From: a virus
Length of the DNA: 64,000 nucleotides
Reading direction: 5' to 3' (one strand)
IMG/VR virus record: IMGVR_UViG_3300031715_000003
Location: 30,225-94,224 of that record
In this document: positions 1,078 through 52,399 of the stretch, piece after piece
Layout: every line of letters begins with the position of its first letter
Numbering within the stretch: the stretch's first letter is position 1
Program-made: the position numbers and the translations under genes
The notes under the pieces: generated by a model
What the model was told of the DNA's origin: nothing
Databases searched by the model: none
What the model saw: only the letters and a program-made list of their open reading frames with translations

Positions 1078-1715
1078 CCGATTGTCAGGAGTGCGGGATT
1101 CAGTACGCCGCCGCTTTCGTTGGCCTTCTCTCCCTCTGTTCCGATCTGGGTCTTTAAGTTGTGCCAACGACGAAGGGCTTCCCCATGAATCCAACATTTT
1201 GCCAGCATTGCGACAGCGGCCCCGAACATAAATCCGGTGATACCCTCGTCGTCCGCAATGTGCGATGCGTCGTTCGCACAATTCTCCAAAGTGTCGCCGT
1301 TGGAGATTCTCGCTTCCATTAAGCGCGCCCATTTATCGGCGTAGCGAACCACTCCAGATCCGTAAGGATCGGTGTTTTTGGCGACCCAGGAAGCCCATAA
1401 TTCGGGATCGCGCAACGTCAACGTGCCCGGTGCTGTCAATAGCGCTCCTTTTAAAGCGGCATCCTTGCGGCGCTGGTCCTCCTCATACTGGCGCTGTTGC
1501 TCTGCGTATTCCGGCGAAGCCAACCATTTCTGGTGGCGTGTGTCGGACTCAGAGTCGTAAAAATTGACGATCTTGTCCACGGTATCACCGGGCCAAGCTG
1601 TCAGTTCTATATCATTGAATTTAGTGGTGACGGCGCTTTTGGACTCATCCGCAAGCGCGATTATGGCTTCGGCGCATTCGCGTATATGCTGGCCTGCCTT
1701 TGATTCGTAAGTCAT
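1074..1715 (-). CDS. Conserved phage hypothetical protein
   Basis: 213 aa, AAGGAG SD, DPYG...GITGFMFGAAV...CWIHGEALRRWHN. Confidence 0.8.
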   Translation of the reverse strand: MTYESKAGQHIRECAEAIIALADESKSAVTTKFNDIELTAWPGDTVDKIVNFYDSESDTRHQKWLASPEYAEQQRQYEEDQRRKDAALKGALLTAPGTLTLRDPELWASWVAKNTDPYGSGVVRYADKWARLMEARISNGDTLENCANDASHIADDEGITGFMFGAAVAMLAKCWIHGEALRRWHNLKTQIGTEGEKANESGGVLNPALLTIG

Positions 1716-1929
1716 TCAATTCTCCTTTTTTTCTGAGCAAATTCGCTCGCTAGTGGCGTCCCACAGGAGAGCCGTCTCCCCCGAGATTGGTCTCCCCCAA
1801 AGGAACGCCCTAAGCGCGAGAATCAGCCCTACTGTCCTCGCAAGCCTGTTGGCGGGTAGCACACGGCCATGAGCCGGCGCTCCACGCGGCGCCGGATGCG
1901 CCACACGCGGATCTTACGCAATATCCACT

Positions 1930-2343
1930 TCATAGTTTCCCTCCTTTCCGCAGGTTTAGTGCGAATCGAGCGCGCTTGCCGATTGCGCCGGGGAGTTTGG
2001 CCGCGGCGCGAAGTTTTCGTGCGGGGAGTTCGCTTCCGGCCGGAACTCCCAAATCGCGATGAAGCTGGCCCGGCGTCAACTTCGACGAAGCAACCTTGCG
2101 GAGCCACTCGCGCGCTACTTCGGACTCCTCGGAGCCGTCATCGTAACCGACTCGCCTGAAGACGTTCGCGCTTGCGAACCCACCGTACATGCGCGCATTC
2201 CACGCGGTGACTGCGGCCTTGGGTGTGGCCGCCACAATCATGGCGGGGCATCCCGAGCACCTGACTCCACCACAGGTCGCGACGCTGCGGATACGTTTGG
2301 CCTCACTGCCGCAAAACGGACACGGCAGAAGTTTGGTCTTCAT
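1930..2343 (-). CDS. Lar-like (restriction alleviation) Zn finger fused to paralog of small basic late protein
   Basis: LLPCPFCG...CSGC...AVTAWNAR; C-terminus 23/39 aa identical to 18702..18884. Confidence 0.75.
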   Translation of the reverse strand: MKTKLLPCPFCGSEAKRIRSVATCGGVRCSGCPAMIVAATPKAAVTAWNARMYGGFASANVFRRVGYDDGSEESEVAREWLRKVASSKLTPGQLHRDLGVPAGSELPARKLRAAAKLPGAIGKRARFALNLRKGGKL

Positions 2344-2567
2344 CGTTCTACCCTCCTTGCCGTGCGTTCCCGCCGGCGCGCAGCGGCGGCGTTCTCCGCG
2401 CCCAGCTTCCACAGTTGGTCATACGTTGCGGTGTAGGAATGCCTGGTTCCTTTGAGCCTGATGGTGATGTAGGTGGCGGCCAGCTCGATTACGATGGGTC
2501 GTATCTTGCCGCGCTCCCGCACCGATTGCAGCGTTTCGCGTTTGATGGGCTTGAGTGTGGTGGTCAT
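2340..2567 (-). CDS. Hypothetical protein
   Basis: Coupled ORF in operon. Confidence 0.65.
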   Translation of the reverse strand: MTTTLKPIKRETLQSVRERGKIRPIVIELAATYITIRLKGTRHSYTATYDQLWKLGAENAAAARRRERTARRVER

Positions 2568-2908
2568 CGCGCGCGCTCCCGTGGCTTCCAGTGCACGTCA
2601 TAGAACCAGAGCGACATCAGATAGGCGCAAGCAGCTTCCTTATGCTCATGTTGCGGCTGAAACGATCGCGCAATGGCTTGAACGTGGTTGAACGCCTTCA
2701 CTGTGTCGATCCCTACTTTAGGCGTGAACCTGACATCCTCTACTCCAAAGAAAAACATATCACTAAAGAAGCCATTCCAGAGCGTACGGCCGTGCTTGAA
2801 CTCCTCTGGGATGGCTTCGAAGGCAGGCATGAGCGAAAACACATCCGCTGGCCCGAAGGCCATATCCAGCCCGGTTACTTCGGTGGGAGCAGTGAAATCT
2901 GTCGTCAC
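2564..2908 (-). CDS. Conserved phage hypothetical protein
   Basis: DMAFG...RSFQPQHEHKEAACAYLMSLWF; GGAGG SD. Confidence 0.75.
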   Translation of the reverse strand: MTTDFTAPTEVTGLDMAFGPADVFSLMPAFEAIPEEFKHGRTLWNGFFSDMFFFGVEDVRFTPKVGIDTVKAFNHVQAIARSFQPQHEHKEAACAYLMSLWFYDVHWKPRERAR

Positions 2909-3423
2909 TTCGCAACCTCCTGCGGGAGTTCGCTTTCAGCCGATTCCGTTCTCCCCGTCAGCCAGAATTTATTGCCGTCTACAATTGCTTGGCAGATGAT
3001 GCGGAGTCGGTCGCGAGCGGATGCCGGGCGTTCTTCCTCGAATGGCCACGGATATCTCATAGGGCTCCATCCTTCGAAGATCGCCTCGACGCGCGTTCGG
3101 CTTGCTTTGTCTAGTGGTAGACGCGGAAGATAGATGTTGTCCTCAATGTAGAGGTATCCATTGGTGCGGAAATTGAGGTCAATTGCGTCCTCCCGAATGG
3201 CTTGGGCAACGAGAAATGCCCCGAGCGCGCAGACGTGGCACTCCACGCCCGACAATGCGAGCTGCTGAAGGTCGATAGGGCCATCGCCCTCCCATTGCTC
3301 AACCCGCACGTAACTTATTTCCGTGAGTTCGAGTTTTACCGGCCCCTTGTAGTCGTGGTCCAGGTATCGCAGCACGTCGGCTGCAAGCATTTCGATGGTC
3401 AGTGGTTGTTGTTCTTCGGACAT
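2905..3423 (-). CDS. Hypothetical protein
   Basis: Starts after leader element E1; CHVCALG motif. Confidence 0.7.
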   Translation of the reverse strand: MSEEQQPLTIEMLAADVLRYLDHDYKGPVKLELTEISYVRVEQWEGDGPIDLQQLALSGVECHVCALGAFLVAQAIREDAIDLNFRTNGYLYIEDNIYLPRLPLDKASRTRVEAIFEGWSPMRYPWPFEEERPASARDRLRIICQAIVDGNKFWLTGRTESAESELPQEVAK

Positions 3424-3432
3424 CAGTTGTTT

Positions 3433-3501
3433 GAGCCTCCTATTGCTCACCCGAGGGGAGCACGGTCGCGGGTGTGCTCCCCTTCGGCGCGCATCAGGAA
3501 A
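3433..3501 (-). promoter_or_regulatory. Structured 5' leader element E1
   Basis: TTTCCTGATGCGC-hairpin-TGAGCAATAGGAGGCTC before ATG. Confidence 0.8.
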
Positions 3502-3844
3502 CGTCTTTCACAACACGCAAAGCGACATCGTAAAGGCCAGGATTAGCGAAGTCTCCAAGATTGGCCTCGGATGAATGCTTGTTCGTCAGATGCATTCTGG
3601 CTTCCGAGACGTGCGCGTAAACTGCGCCGGAGCCTGGCCCTTCCCGCTCAATAGTCTTATCGCGCTGGTTGACCAGCATGTGAATCCAATACGATCCGTC
3701 GGTGCAGCGCTCAATATCGATCTCCCCGCCAGGGAACTTGACTCGGAAGCTGTCGTGTTCCGGCTTGCGCGGATTGCCCTCCAATTCGACACCAACGACG
3801 CTATCCCCAAAGGATTTGATTCTCAGGTGTTCGCCTGTTTTCAT
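3494..3844 (-). CDS. Hypothetical protein
   Basis: MKTGEHL after leader E2; stop lies inside E1. Confidence 0.7.
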   Translation of the reverse strand: MKTGEHLRIKSFGDSVVGVELEGNPRKPEHDSFRVKFPGGEIDIERCTDGSYWIHMLVNQRDKTIEREGPGSGAVYAHVSEARMHLTNKHSSEANLGDFANPGLYDVALRVVKDVS

Positions 3845-3851
3845 AGTTTGT

Positions 3852-3943
3852 GAGCCTCCTATTGCTCGATGGCCGCCGTCTCCGCGCGGAAAAGATAGGA
3901 GACTTGGGAATCTTGCCCCACGGCGGCCGTCGCGCACCAGGAA
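3852..3943 (-). promoter_or_regulatory. Structured 5' leader element E2
   Basis: TTCCTGGTGCGC-longer hairpin-GAGCAATAGGAGGCTC. Confidence 0.8.
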
Positions 3944-3971
3944 GCTGGCGCGCGCCCGCATTAGCCGGGTT

Positions 3972-10905: not shown

Positions 10906-10935
10906 TTGACTTTGTAGGGTATTCCGCCGTAAGAT
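10906..10935 (+). promoter_or_regulatory. Promoter of orphan pentamer-array RNA G
   Basis: TTGACT-N18-TAAGAT directly before array. Confidence 0.7.
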
Positions 10936-11056
10936 GGCCTTGCATCTCTCGTCGGGTCTGCTCCTGGCATGTCATCACGCAGCGCTACACGGCAACGCGA
11001 CGCAACGCAAGGAAATCGCACTGGGGGATAACAAACCAGAAATCGAACTCCCCCAG
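10936..11056 (+). ncRNA. Orphan pentamer-array RNA G (15 units) plus 3' hairpin
   Basis: ggcct tgcat ctctc gtcgg gtctg ctcct ggcat gtcat cacgc agcgc tacac ggcaa cgcga cgcaa cgcaa gg; C at position 3 in all; CTGGGGGA...TCCCCCAG hairpin. Confidence 0.75.
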
Positions 11057-18884: not shown

Positions 18885-19114
18885 TGGCGAGCGAACTCCC
18901 CATCTGCAAGACCTGCGGAGCATCGCTTGATGGATGCCCTGTGGTCATTACTGAGGGGAACACGTTCCACAGATTCTGGACGGACTGCCGCAGAACCAAT
19001 GAACGTCTGAGGACCAGCGCAGCCGATCTCCTCGAAGAGAACCAGCAGTTGCGCGGACTCCTAAAGGCAGCGATAAAAACCGCAGAAGACAATGACCGCC
19101 GCAGGAAGCGATAG
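18884..19114 (+). CDS. Hypothetical Zn-finger/coiled-coil protein
   Basis: GTG overlapping stop; CKTC...FH...C. Confidence 0.55.
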   Translation: MASELPICKTCGASLDGCPVVITEGNTFHRFWTDCRRTNERLRTSAADLLEENQQLRGLLKAAIKTAEDNDRRRKR

Positions 19115-20682
19115 TGGCAGCCCTCAACCAAGAATCCGTAGAGAAGAGCGCGAGCGCATTCCAAGCGGAACTAGCGCGGCGCCGGGAATCTCGCCCTGAG
19201 AACCTCACCCGCTTCAAGGAAGACCCACTGGGCTTTATCCGGTGGGATTTCCCATGGGGGAGACCTGGGCCGCTCGAACGGTTCGAAGGCCCCGACGTAT
19301 GGCAGGTGGACTTCCTCACGGAACTGGGGGAACTCATTCGGAAGCGCGAGTTCGACGGAGTCAACTCTGTTGCGCCCATCAGGATGACGCGCACTGCTGG
19401 CAAGGGCGTGGGGAAGTCGGTAATGGCCGCCTTCCTCACCAGTTTCCTTTTGAAGTGTTGGAAACTCTCCAAGGGGACCGTCACGGCCAACACCTACGTC
19501 CAACTTGAAACCAAGACGTGGGCGACCATCAGCCAGTGGCTCAGAATGTCGCGATCGTCCTCCCCCTTTGAAATTCGCGACTCCGGCGTCTACCACAGAG
19601 TGGAGCGCAAGGCGTGGTCTTGCACTCCCCAGACATCGGACGAAAAGAACAAGGAAGCGTTCGCCGGCCAGCACGCCGCCACCTCAGTACAGTACTACAT
19701 TTTTGATGAGTCCTCGGCCATAGCCGATACCATCTTCAAGGAAGCCGAGCGCGGACTTGTGGATGGTATGCCCATGATATTCGTGTTTGGGAACCCGACC
19801 AAATCCACCGGTACGTTCTTCCGTATCAATTTCGGAGACGAGAAGGAACGATGGAACCACGGCATCATCGATTCCCGAACCTGTAAGATTCCCAACAAAC
19901 AGGAACTCGAAGACACCATCAGGCTGGCCCCGGGCGGGGAGGACGATGACGACGTCCGCGTCTATATCCGCGGACTTCCGCCATTGTCGAACCCATCGAT
20001 GCAGGTCATCGATCCTCAGCGAGTCTACGACGCGCAGAAACGGACTCCCGAAGTCCTGGATGACGAACCGCTAGTGGCGGGCGTCGACCTGTCGCGCGGC
20101 GGCGGCGACCCGGCCGTCGTCCGCTTCCGCCGTGGCAATGACGCGCGTAGCATTGCGCCTCGAAAGCTTTCTCCCCAGGAGACGCGCGATTCCATGCAGG
20201 TGGTAGGGTACTTGTCTGATTTGGCGAAGCATTCCTTTGGGGGGAGGAAGGTGGCGGCGTTCTTTATTGACGGGGGCTCCATGGGCGGCCCCATCATTGA
20301 TCGTCTGCACCAGCTCGGGCTGAATCAATTCATCGAAGTGCAGTTCGGAGGCGGAGCCCCGCAGCCGGATCGCTACGCAAACATGCGGGCCTGGATGTGG
20401 TTTCAATTGGCTGAGGCGCTGGGGAGTCGGCTCGCGATTGACAAGGACCCCGTTCTGGAATTGGACTTGACGTCAGTGGCACCAGGCAGGCGCGACAAAA
20501 AGAACCGATTTGTTTTGGAATCGAAGGAATCTATGAAAGCGCGGGGATTGGCCTCCCCCAATGACGGTGATGCGCTGGCCCTCACTTACGCGCGGACGGT
20601 AGGACCGCAGCGCCCAGAGCGCATTCCACCGAAAAGGAACTACAACATCAAGCCCGAGGCTGGTTCCTGGATGGGGCTATAA
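19114..20682 (+). CDS. terL: Terminase large subunit
   Basis: Walker A AGKGVGKS, Walker B YIFDES, FGNPT, nuclease GVDLSRGGGD and SPNDGDALAL. Confidence 0.95.
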   Translation: MAALNQESVEKSASAFQAELARRRESRPENLTRFKEDPLGFIRWDFPWGRPGPLERFEGPDVWQVDFLTELGELIRKREFDGVNSVAPIRMTRTAGKGVGKSVMAAFLTSFLLKCWKLSKGTVTANTYVQLETKTWATISQWLRMSRSSSPFEIRDSGVYHRVERKAWSCTPQTSDEKNKEAFAGQHAATSVQYYIFDESSAIADTIFKEAERGLVDGMPMIFVFGNPTKSTGTFFRINFGDEKERWNHGIIDSRTCKIPNKQELEDTIRLAPGGEDDDDVRVYIRGLPPLSNPSMQVIDPQRVYDAQKRTPEVLDDEPLVAGVDLSRGGGDPAVVRFRRGNDARSIAPRKLSPQETRDSMQVVGYLSDLAKHSFGGRKVAAFFIDGGSMGGPIIDRLHQLGLNQFIEVQFGGGAPQPDRYANMRAWMWFQLAEALGSRLAIDKDPVLELDLTSVAPGRRDKKNRFVLESKESMKARGLASPNDGDALALTYARTVGPQRPERIPPKRNYNIKPEAGSWMGL

Positions 20683-20723
20683 TGATGGACGGGTTAAGCA
20701 TTAGAGCTTCCTATCAATCGACT

Positions 20724-20762
20724 TGGGGGGAGTACGGCGACAGACGTTCTCCCCCCGTTTTT
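20724..20762. terminator. Hairpin built from two copies of the dispersed motif; ends terL and RNA H
   Basis: GGGGGGAGTACG...CGTTCTCCCCCC-GTTTTT. Confidence 0.6.
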
Positions 20763-20844
20763 CCTTGCGTTGCGATGCTATGCGCCGACGAGATTTGCGG
20801 AGACGAGATACGCCAGGCTCCGACGAGCGCCGACATGCCGTGAC
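20763..20844 (-). ncRNA. Orphan pentamer-array RNA H (16 units)
   Basis: gtcac ggcat gtcgg cgctc gtcgg agcct ggcgt atctc gtctc cgcaa atctc gtcgg cgcat agcat cgcaa cgcaa gg; TGgTATAGT extended -10 at 20854-20862. Confidence 0.75.
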
Positions 20845-20896
20845 TTCCTTACGACTATACCAAGATTATGGTATCTTCTGAAGCAGGAGATTCCTG

Positions 20897-21172
20897 ATGA
20901 CGAGTGCCAGCGGCAAGAGGCCCACACGGCCTGAAAAACGCAAAGTGCTTCACTTCCATGGAGAGCCAGCGCAAAACGGTTTTCTCATTCATCACAGATT
21001 GGAGCCCCGGAAAATTCCACGCGCTGGCGGAGGGAGTATGCCGGCAATGGATGACGTGGATCCGAAACCCTATATGGCCACCGACAAGCAGTCCGCGCTC
21101 GATCACATCAGCGGATTGATGGATCAAATGGGGCCGTCCGATCAGAGTCCGGACCAAGCCGTCGCAGGGTGA
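20897..21172 (+). CDS. Hypothetical protein
   Basis: AGGAG SD. Confidence 0.65.
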   Translation: MTSASGKRPTRPEKRKVLHFHGEPAQNGFLIHHRLEPRKIPRAGGGSMPAMDDVDPKPYMATDKQSALDHISGLMDQMGPSDQSPDQAVAG

Positions 21173-21396
21173 AATTCCCGCTGACCATGACCCGCATCGA
21201 TCCAGTATTGCTCCTGCTCTTCCTCGGGATGCTGGTCTTCACCGGGTTGTTGCTCCTCATCTCTAAGTGGAGTCCCAACGATGGCCAGACCTTCCAGGTA
21301 ATTTCCGGCTTGCTCACCGCCTTCTCTGGCGCATTCTTTCTCCGCATCAAGCCCAAAACCGAAGATAAGACACCACCGGAACCGCCGGGGCAGTAG
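21169..21396 (+). CDS. Two-TM membrane protein, holin-like
   Basis: Two hydrophobic helices, charged C-tail. Confidence 0.5.
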   Translation: MKFPLTMTRIDPVLLLLFLGMLVFTGLLLLISKWSPNDGQTFQVISGLLTAFSGAFFLRIKPKTEDKTPPEPPGQ

Positions 21397-50314: not shown

Positions 50315-50404
50315 GGCGACGCAACGCGTGTCAACGCGCTACAATGCGCGGCGGCTCACGTCTGCGTAAGGCGAGTCTGGTCTGCTCCCGGCATCGCAAC
50401 GTAA
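50315..50404 (+). ncRNA. Pentamer array A (18 units)
   Basis: ggcga cgcaa cgcgt gtcaa ... ggcat cgcaa cgtaa then AGGAG SD; pyrimidine at position 3 in all, C in 16. Confidence 0.8.
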
Positions 50405-50416
50405 AGGAGAAATGGA

Positions 50417-50980
50417 ATGATTTCGGCAAAATGCCATCTTGAATCGATTTCGCAGTACTCCCAGAGCAAAGCTCATCGAGTTCCGCGCAATCAAAATGAA
50501 TCTTATGACCAATGGGAAGAGCGGACGTGGCGCGAACGCCTGCATGTGTCCGAGGATGGCCACATTTTTATTCCTCCCACTGCCATCAAAAACGCGCTCT
50601 CGGAGGCGGCTCAGTACCTCTCGATGAAGATTCCGGGGAAGCGCAACGCCACCTACACCAAGCGCTTCGTCTCGGGGGTTCTGGTGGCCGATCCCATAAC
50701 GCTGCCGATCACGGTCGATGAGGTCAAGTGCGAATGGCTTTTCCTGCCGGCCGATGGGAAGCGCGGTTCTGGAACGCGCGTCAACAAATGCCTGCCCCTG
50801 ATTGATCGGTGGTCGGGCGATGTACAGGTATTCATTCTGGACGACGAGATCAGCAAGGAGGTCTTCGAGAAGCACATGGATGTTGCGGGATCCTTGATCG
50901 GAGTTGGCCGGTTCCGCCCCTCGAAGAATGGATACTACGGTCGGTTCAAAGCTACCGTTAGGTCCTGGGAGTCGCAGTGA
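50417..50980 (+). CDS. Stand-alone Cas7/RAMP-like protein
   Basis: N-terminal strand CHLESISQY, FIPPTAIKNALSEAA (cf. RAMP IPgSslKGalR), C-terminal Gly loop GSLIGVGRFRPSKNGYYGRF; AAGGAG SD. Confidence 0.7.
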   Translation: MISAKCHLESISQYSQSKAHRVPRNQNESYDQWEERTWRERLHVSEDGHIFIPPTAIKNALSEAAQYLSMKIPGKRNATYTKRFVSGVLVADPITLPITVDEVKCEWLFLPADGKRGSGTRVNKCLPLIDRWSGDVQVFILDDEISKEVFEKHMDVAGSLIGVGRFRPSKNGYYGRFKATVRSWESQ

Positions 50981-50986
50981 AATGAT

Positions 50987-51134
50987 CTCGCGGCACGTCT
51001 TGGCGAGTCGCCTTCTGGCCAGTCCAGGCGCATCATGCTCTCGTCGTGGCCTGTCACCGCCTGTCGCTCAGCTAGGCACGTCTTGTCATGGCAGGTCTGT
51101 TCGCGTCTAGTCTTGGCACCGCATCGCATCTCAA
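50987..51134 (+). ncRNA. Pentamer array B (about 29 units, two phase slips)
   Basis: ggcac gtctt ggcga gtcgc ... ggcac cgcat cgcat ctcaa GGAG. Confidence 0.8.
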
Positions 51135-51144
51135 GGAGAATAAA

Positions 51145-51348
51145 ATGGCAAAGGAATCTAAGATATCCAAACTCATCGAGGAACTAGCAGAAGAAATGGC
51201 AGAGGATCTGGTGAAGAGTTTGACGATGGAGTTTAAAAAGATTTCGCCGGGAGCGAACAGGCTGGCAAATGGAAAGCGTAGGAGCACGCCAGAGGCTTCT
51301 GGCCCAAAGAAACCTGGTTGGAGCATAAGGGGTACGAAGAGGAAATGA
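51145..51348 (+). CDS. 67-aa hypothetical protein in Cas7-like module
   Basis: AAGGAGAATAAAATG; acidic helix plus basic tail. Confidence 0.7.
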   Translation: MAKESKISKLIEELAEEMAEDLVKSLTMEFKKISPGANRLANGKRRSTPEASGPKKPGWSIRGTKRK

Positions 51349-51349
51349 T

Positions 51350-51439
51350 TTCATGGCTCGTCCGGGCCCGGCATGGCAACGCTTGTCCTGGCAGGACTCG
51401 GCTCGTCTAGTCGTATCGTGGTATGGCACGGCATCGCAA
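51350..51439 (+). ncRNA. Pentamer array C (18 units)
   Basis: ttcat ggctc gtccg ggccc ggcat ggcaa cgctt gtcct ggcag gactc ggctc gtcta gtcgt atcgt ggtat ggcac ggcat cgcaa. Confidence 0.85.
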
Positions 51440-51449
51440 GGAGAATAAA

Positions 51450-51971
51450 ATGGCAGTAGAAACTAAAAACGGTAAAGATCCAAAGCGTCCTATTGGTACG
51501 ATCTCGATCGACACACGGGTCGTTTACGATCGTCTCAAGGCGACGCAGATCGGGGAGACCGTACTGTATGCCGATTTGACCAAGCTAATCGGTCGCGATA
51601 TCCGCGGCGTGGCTTCATGGGTACTCCAGAGCGCACGGCGCAAAGCCCTGCACGACGATCAACTGGTGTTCGGATCGGTTCGCAACGAGGGAGTACGGCG
51701 TCTGGCAGACACGGAGATCGTCGACACCGGGCACGACGCCATCACTCAGATCCACAGGCGGTCGGTTCGGTCCCTCAGGAAGCTGGCCTCAGTCCAGGAT
51801 TTCAGCGCTCTCCCCCCGCAAGATAAAGTGCGACACAATGCCTACGCTTCGCTGCTCTCCATATCGGCGCATGCCACCCGGGATAAGCAGGTCAAGAAGA
51901 TCGAACAAGCAGTGGAAAAGTCTCAGGCAGCTCTGGCGGTCCAGAGGACGCTGGACGCGCTCAAGGAATAA
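51450..51971 (+). CDS. Basic 173-aa protein, winged-helix-like N-terminus, partner of Cas7-like gene
   Basis: GETVLYADLTKLIGRD...SARR...SVRNEGVRRL; same 16-nt RBS as 51145. Confidence 0.75.
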   Translation: MAVETKNGKDPKRPIGTISIDTRVVYDRLKATQIGETVLYADLTKLIGRDIRGVASWVLQSARRKALHDDQLVFGSVRNEGVRRLADTEIVDTGHDAITQIHRRSVRSLRKLASVQDFSALPPQDKVRHNAYASLLSISAHATRDKQVKKIEQAVEKSQAALAVQRTLDALKE

Positions 51972-51974
51972 CAT

Positions 51975-52149
51975 GGCTCGTCGTGGCGAGTCTTCGCCTA
52001 GCAGGTCTTGTCATGACGAATCACCGCACGTCCATGCGAGTCCAGTCCGCGCTCCTCGATGCATATCGTGGCGATTCGTGGCGGCTCCTAGCATCGCCTG
52101 TCGGTGCACGGCATCTCCCGGCGAGTCCTGTCCCGGCAACGCAACGCAA
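51975..52149 (+). ncRNA. Pentamer array D (35 units)
   Basis: C at position 3 in 35/35 units; GTC 10, GGC 7, CGC 6; ends ggcaa cgcaa cgcaa gg. Confidence 0.85.
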
Positions 52150-52177
52150 GGTATTAATGTGGTCTTTTATAACGTTC

Positions 52178-52277
52178 TTCTCGGCGTGTCTGGTCAGAGC
52201 ACGGCAGGTCTGCGCCCGGCATTGCTCGTCTGCGCGCCACGTGGCGTATCAACTCCGCTCTAAGCGCGGCATCGCAA
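52178..52277 (+). ncRNA. Pentamer array E (20 units)
   Basis: C at position 3 in 20/20; ends ggcat cgcaa gg; AT-rich linkers both sides. Confidence 0.85.
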
Positions 52278-52322
52278 GGTTCTTTATCTCCCCAAAACTA
52301 CAGTAAAATGGTCTACATATTC

Positions 52323-52399
52323 AGCGTGGCGCTGGGCCCGTCATGGCTTAGCGAGACAACGCAAGGCTGGTCTGGTCTCGGCAACGCCGGGCAACGCAT
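52323..52399 (+). ncRNA. Pentamer array F (2 + 13 units)
   Basis: ggccc gtcat ggctt agcga gacaa cgcaa ggctg gtctg gtctc ggcaa cgccg ggcaa cgcat. Confidence 0.75.

Follow-up and report, generated by a model that had tools for sequence, protein, structure and literature searches.

A predicted solo vrRNA gene behind the terL gene of a phage that carries its own VIPR system

Behind the large terminase gene (terL) of this phage, on the strand opposite to the late genes, lies a tract of five-nucleotide units, here called H, which we read from its sequence, with a probability of about four in five, as a stand-alone (solo) vrRNA gene that gives the phage's own VIPR system one more guide. VIPR is a CRISPR-like gene silencer that was first described in 2026; its systems are phage-borne and consist of a minimal RAMP protein (Vipr), accessory genes, and vrRNAs (bioRxiv 10.64898/2026.04.26.720920). 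In a vrRNA, 9–16 units pair a constant GGY, "or a related consensus" such as YNNNG, with a variable NN and lead into an invariant tail; targets are read two bases on and one skipped, without self-targeting (bioRxiv 10.64898/2026.04.26.720920). Solo vrRNAs were reported in October 2026 from F5 satellites and vipr-null SUSP1-like phages, with vipr genes, rival vrRNAs, satellites, and host REP elements as their targets (bioRxiv 10.64898/2026.10.15.759431). VIPR and solo vrRNAs are therefore already published, and H, read in this way, is a further example of them. What is particular here is a G-K-C clade with a changed G-loop, the antisense placement of the guide against the terL terminator, and an intact vipr locus in the same phage.

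Coordinates below are those of the window, the whole stretch of 64,000 nucleotides that was analysed. H and its flanks comprise the following features:

20854–20882, minus strand: promoter-like site of H (putative function), with TTCAGA (20882–20877), a spacer of 17 nt, and the extended -10 TGgTATAGT (20862–20854)
20780–20844, minus strand: guide part of the predicted vrRNA H, 13 pentamers N-K-C-NN
20763–20779, minus strand: conserved 3' end of H, AGCAT CGCAA CGCAA GG, still in pentamer register
20725–20756, both strands: hairpin with G6AG / CTC6 arms, 11/12 arm pairs

The pentamer tract runs from 20844 to 20765 on the minus strand as 16 in-phase units N-K-C-N-N, every one of which has C at position 3 and G or T at position 2. 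The original prediction had described 16 in-phase pentamers with C at position 3 throughout behind the extended -10 TGgTATAGT, and all of these elements are present. It had also listed the variable dinucleotides; the list is exact, but its last three entries (AT AA AA) belong to the 3' end that the tracts of this phage share, and the guide consists of the first 13 (AC AT GG TC GG CT GT TC TC AA TC GG AT). In a promoter scan of 20400–21300, the site upstream of H was the only sigma-70-like site, and a transcription start near 20848–20846 is predicted from it. The longest period-5 K-C run is 16 in H, as against a maximum of 9 in 200 shuffles of the window, a comparison with shuffled controls that the original prediction had named as a refuting test and that H passes clearly, and as against 7 in 534 kb from 80 TerL-related phages. 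A census of same-base runs at periods 3–7 in the window gave long runs only for C at period 5, and these form seven tracts on the plus strand (10938–11008 and six within 50317–52397) and a single one, H, on the minus strand. An Rfam search of the whole window and three related loci returned no family at gathering score, and blastn of the terL-H region against deposited phages returned no match.

H is one of eight N-K-C-NN tracts in the window, six of which flank the 187-aa ORF at 50417–50980, and all eight end in GCAW-CGCAA-(CGCAA)-GG or close to it, in register. The 12-mer CGCAACGCAAGG occurs three times in the 94-kb genome, solely at the ends of tracts G, D, and H, and the other tracts end in close variants of it. 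Taken over the 139 units of the phage, the entropies of positions 1–5 are 1.67, 1.24, 0, 1.91, and 1.97 bits: position 1 is G-biased, position 2 is G or T, position 3 is an invariant C, and positions 4 and 5 are near random. A fixed position 3 beside hypervariable positions 4 and 5 matches the published logic, in which a constant triplet alternates with NN, and the polarity of tail and scaffold makes the minus strand the sense strand of H. Because its scaffold and 3' motif match those of the arrays that flank the Vipr gene, and because it has a promoter-like site of its own, as in published vrRNA anatomy, H is best read as a solo vrRNA, and the core of the original prediction, a guide-like RNA gene, is thereby upheld at the level of sequence. 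Three further 8-unit tracts in the genome lack the tail and were taken as chance. Among viral contigs, a pattern search with six K-C units plus the tail, and nothing else, retrieved seven contigs full of such arrays, tail included.

A second solo cassette lies in the window at some distance from the vipr locus:

10906–11056, plus strand: solo cassette G, with a promoter, 15 pentamers, a tail as in H, and a hairpin

That G and H have the same architecture had been predicted, and promoter, pentamers, tail, and hairpin are indeed found in both. What they have in common is the scaffold register, the tail, and the hairpin arms only; their promoters and guides are unrelated, and the H guide is a copy of no other guide of the phage.

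Three of the tracts beside vipr, at 50317–50420, 51067–51148, and 51352–51453, run straight into gene starts. Their common end, CGCAAGGAG, also serves vipr, ORF 51145–51348, and ORF 51450–51971 as Shine-Dalgarno sequence, which places these guides within the 5' leaders of genes of the system itself; contigs L006 and L007 show this arrangement as well. In L008 (IMGVR_UViG_3300044960_000368), the minus strand carries a long array at 1380–3960 with about 13 CGC/NN guides, and behind every guide stands a conserved element of ~75 nt that starts with the hairpin GGCCAGCCCC-GCGA-GGGGCTGGC. This element gave no Rfam family at gathering score, hammerhead included, and it may be an undescribed processing element.

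The protein that H would need is encoded 29.6 kb away:

50417–50980, plus strand: vipr, 187 aa, a Cas7-like RAMP protein, predicted to act on H in trans as its binding partner

Searched against solved structures, the protein of ORF 50417–50980 has SUSP1 Vipr (PDB 36pp) as its sole match, at E 0.015 as a single sequence, and a profile of six clade proteins reaches SUSP1 Vipr at E 3e-6, with nothing else significant. Five of the seven array contigs encode a homologue directly beside the arrays (42–52% identity, E 1e-45 to 8e-68); as the seven loci were retrieved by RNA pattern alone, this co-occurrence of protein and RNA is independent of annotation. The predicted structure of the 187-aa protein (pLDDT 89, pTM 0.83) matches, at E about 5e-7, Cas7-type backbone subunits (Cas7/Csm3) from CRISPR complexes of types VII and III, in a structure library that is older than the deposition of Vipr. 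In the published structure, one Vipr protomer binds each unit, G1 is read by H17 and D177, G2 by R138 and W178, and Y3 lies in a pocket with R179 (bioRxiv 10.64898/2026.04.26.720927). The G-loop (residues about 162–168) reads G[IV]GRFRP in all six clade proteins as against GVGDWRP in SUSP1 Vipr, which means that D177 and W178 of SUSP1 are replaced by R and F in the clade while R179 is kept. This change would fit a scaffold relaxed from GGY to N-K-C. After array C, the 173-aa ORF at 51450–51971 has homologues beside vipr in L006 (36%, E 2e-31) and L008 (33%, E 1e-9) and matches no Pfam or PHROG family, and it is a candidate accessory (vap-like) gene of the clade.

H itself lies between terL and the next late gene, on the opposite strand to both:

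19114–20682, plus strand: terL (large terminase), PHROG 2, E 9e-26, with homologues; transcribed towards H
20897–21172, plus strand: next late gene, 91 aa, 40% identity to L010 6070–6354

In L010, the closest relative among viral contigs (TerL 59% identical), the next gene, the homologue of the one at 20897–21172, begins 38 bp past the terL stop. This phage has 214 bp in the same place, taken up exactly by hairpin, tract, and promoter, and an H-like tract was found in none of 80 TerL-relative loci. H is therefore a lineage-specific insertion. The Shine-Dalgarno sequence of the gene at 20897–21172 (GGAG, about 20885–20888) abuts the -35 of H, and the plus strand shows no promoter-like site between the terL terminator and this gene (20757–20896); expression of the late genes downstream may require terminator read-through, and their transcription may collide with that of H. 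The TerL gene of L010 (3504–6032) encodes 842 aa as against 522 aa here, and a protein of the same length as the L010 TerL, P0004, has a Hint-type (PF13403) domain, which suggests an intein in the relative's terL that is absent from this phage.

The hairpin that follows the tract had been predicted to close the RNA gene. It is present and folds on both strands (-22.9 kcal/mol on the plus and -21.4 kcal/mol on the minus strand), although it spans 20756–20725 and does not include 20724. Its plus strand continues into a T-run at 20758–20762 (GTTTTT), and because of this T-run we read it primarily as the intrinsic terminator of terL, which the predicted H transcript would meet head-on. On the minus strand it begins 6 nt (AAAAAC) past the predicted end of the vrRNA and has no U-run in the direction of H. 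A vrRNA of this system can do without such a hairpin, which is missing from the arrays adjoining vipr.

The original prediction had further held that guide cassettes are acquired or moved as units and that G and H are both closed by a hairpin containing a genome-wide motif, GWNCTCCCC. The hairpin arms of H are inverted copies of this motif, and G and H both end in hairpins built from it. The motif occurs in 113 copies in the 94-kb genome (61 on the plus and 52 on the minus strand), as against about 9 expected, and 77% of the copies lie inside genes, in either orientation, which makes it a feature of the whole genome and not a mark of the cassettes. Its extended consensus is A-G-C-G-T-T-C-T-C-C-C-C. 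Only ten pairs of copies form hairpins, and a T-run is found only at the one after terL. The claim of a closing hairpin thus stands as far as the structure itself is concerned, but its T-run belongs to terL and its motif is not cassette-specific. As to movement in units, the way H fills a 214-bp gap that measures 38 bp in L010 agrees with acquisition, but a common mobile unit is not supported, given that G and H share no more than scaffold, tail, and hairpin arms. We consider it improbable that cassettes of promoter, guide, tail, and hairpin such as G and H enter the genome at or through the dispersed motif; if they did, this would be a route to gain or relocate guides without Cas1/Cas2-like machinery.

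What H might silence was sought with its guide. Since the last three units belong to the shared 3' end, the first 13 dinucleotides were used, joined with one wildcard as in the published method, in which a natural target is called at matches in at least 80% of the read NN positions with shuffled-guide nulls. The 1-nt skip was assumed to hold for the G-K-C clade; its sole internal support is a near-match of array C (20/28, reached by 2/100 shuffles). Reading pentamer position 1 as a third base was tried on that near-match, where it matched at 5/13 and so found no support.

A self-target scan of the 94-kb genome with skips of 0–3 was null, the best matches at skip 1 (21/32 with 16 units, 17/26 with 13 units) lying inside the shuffled-guide null, and this agrees with the published absence of self-targeting in VIPR. 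Exact scans with 12 or 13 units found no match in viral, metagenome, or genome contigs; the large collections were searched by exact sub-patterns only, a procedure that would miss targets with scattered mismatches. Relaxed scans gave one match among viral contigs with 9-unit sub-windows, and one each in metagenomes and genomes with the central 10 units, where about one match is expected by chance in the genome collection (596 billion bases, two strands, 20 fixed bases). The three score 19/26, 23/26, and 22/26, of which 9–10 core units were fixed by the search itself, and their remaining positions match at 1/8, 3/6, and 2/6.

None of the three makes a convincing target. The first, a portal gene in L009 (19/26, spelling IPDFDDTSP, wobble-aligned), was rejected: it matches in 9/13 units, its lineage is AT-rich, and in the three relatives known for it those 9 units are retained and no others match. 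The site lies within a conserved block at which this phage's own portal differs. The second, an IclR regulator in L090 (23/26), has its skipped bases off the wobble positions and is at chance level, as is the third, a chromosomal gene in L091 (22/26), a Verrucomicrobia MAG without a TerL or Vipr relative. None of these matches falls within a mobile element that might plausibly belong to a rival, and their number is about that of chance. A search with H and G in the seven same-clade VIPR loci, for a rival vipr or vrRNA as target, was null, and the G guide found no match in viral contigs. The idea that H spells a nearby gene as rivals carry it was also tried on the 80 TerL-relative loci, where the best match, in the acidic N-terminus of a scaffolding gene, scores 19/26, a value that 11/60 shuffles reach, and the idea was rejected.

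This outcome bears on the other ways in which H can be read. The best of them, which we regard as unlikely, is that H loads Vipr without a specific target, either as a decoy or buffer that titrates Vipr or tunes how much of it is free, or as a counter-measure against a same-clade Vipr carried by a rival. Satellite solo vrRNAs do redirect or compete for Vipr (cf. SUSP1 VIPR), and no target of H was found in any collection scanned. However, the databases are incomplete, and failure to find a target in them counts for little; even the published decoys require genuine target sites in multiple copies, of which none was seen for H; and this phage encodes its own Vipr, with H carrying the exact tail of that system.

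We think it less likely still that H was once copied or captured as an array unit and has since decayed or fallen silent, so that the phage neither expresses nor uses it any longer. The same null target search could be taken in its favour, as could the missing U-run past the hairpin in the direction of H, but the scaffold is perfect in 16/16 units at both constrained positions, whereas position 2 deviates in 8/139 units (in the main arrays), and the tail is intact behind a good extended -10 promoter at the right distance. That the tract is no RNA gene at all, and is instead a small protein gene or else a signal in the DNA where terL ends, is scarcely credible: a plus-strand ORF (20682–20843, 53 aa) and a minus-strand ORF (20836–20714, 40 aa, AAGGA 9 nt before the ATG) are both open and the hairpin is a plus-strand terminator, but a period of 5 is incompatible with coding, neither ORF has a Pfam or PHROG match, the 53-aa ORF has no counterpart in L010, and this scaffold and tail recur in seven further tracts that stand in other contexts and frames.

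With H as a solo vrRNA gene, the likely course of events can be outlined from the published system. Without depending on the vipr operon, host RNA polymerase would start at the extended -10 near 20847 of the minus strand and yield a transcript of ~85–125 nt with the 13 guide pentamers, GCAT-CGCAA-CGCAA-GG, and perhaps the hairpin; a vrRNA is expected to be a small RNA of ~100 nt that co-purifies with Vipr. One Vipr protomer would then bind each pentamer, with the G-K-C triplet buried and the two variable bases exposed, and the resulting filament would recognise double-stranded DNA by reading NN-x-NN-x (two read, one skipped) and block transcription at the target, as shown for SUSP1 VIPR. As its target, a gene carried by some competing phage or other mobile element not represented in the searched collections would be most likely. 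The hairpin may serve to keep the convergent H and terL transcripts out of each other's genes, being by its sequence an efficient terminator only for terL.

Like the published solo vrRNAs, H consists of a 5-nt repeat tract with the tail of its system, away from vipr and vap, with Vipr presumed to act in trans. The published phage solos sit at the site of a vipr-vap deletion, and satellite solos occur without any vipr; in contrast, the phage of H keeps an intact vipr, and H lies antisense in the late (packaging) module with its own promoter-like site. The system as a whole resembles the Type II VIPR of Escherichia phage SUSP1 in its small Cas7-like RAMP protein with a conserved G-loop, in its guides of 9–16 pentamers with two variable bases and a common 3' end, and in the absence of self-targeting. 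It differs in its scaffold, G-K-C here and GGY in SUSP1, and in its 3' end, which is a short in-register motif without the ~40-nt pseudoknot tail and with no conserved structured tail after it; the two Vipr proteins are so dissimilar that a pairwise match is confined to the C-terminal half. With class 1 CRISPR-Cas, the crRNA on its Cas7 backbone, it would share the protein fold (from the predicted model), one protomer per fixed step of the guide, and bases flipped out at regular intervals. Unlike class 1 CRISPR-Cas, it has no repeat-spacer array, no adaptation genes noted beside its arrays, and a non-contiguous code, and it is phage-borne.

The picture of what VIPR is remains unchanged by H. 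Nearly all functional work on VIPR has been done on one E. coli phage, and a divergent G-K-C clade is added here, in which the co-variation of protein and RNA (D to R and W to F in the protein, GGY to G-K-C in the scaffold) can be used to test how scaffold specificity is set. While published solo vrRNAs are found on satellites and on phages that have lost vipr, the reading of H preferred here would describe a VIPR-positive phage with separately promoted guides scattered among its structural genes, one of them placed back to back with the terminator of terL.
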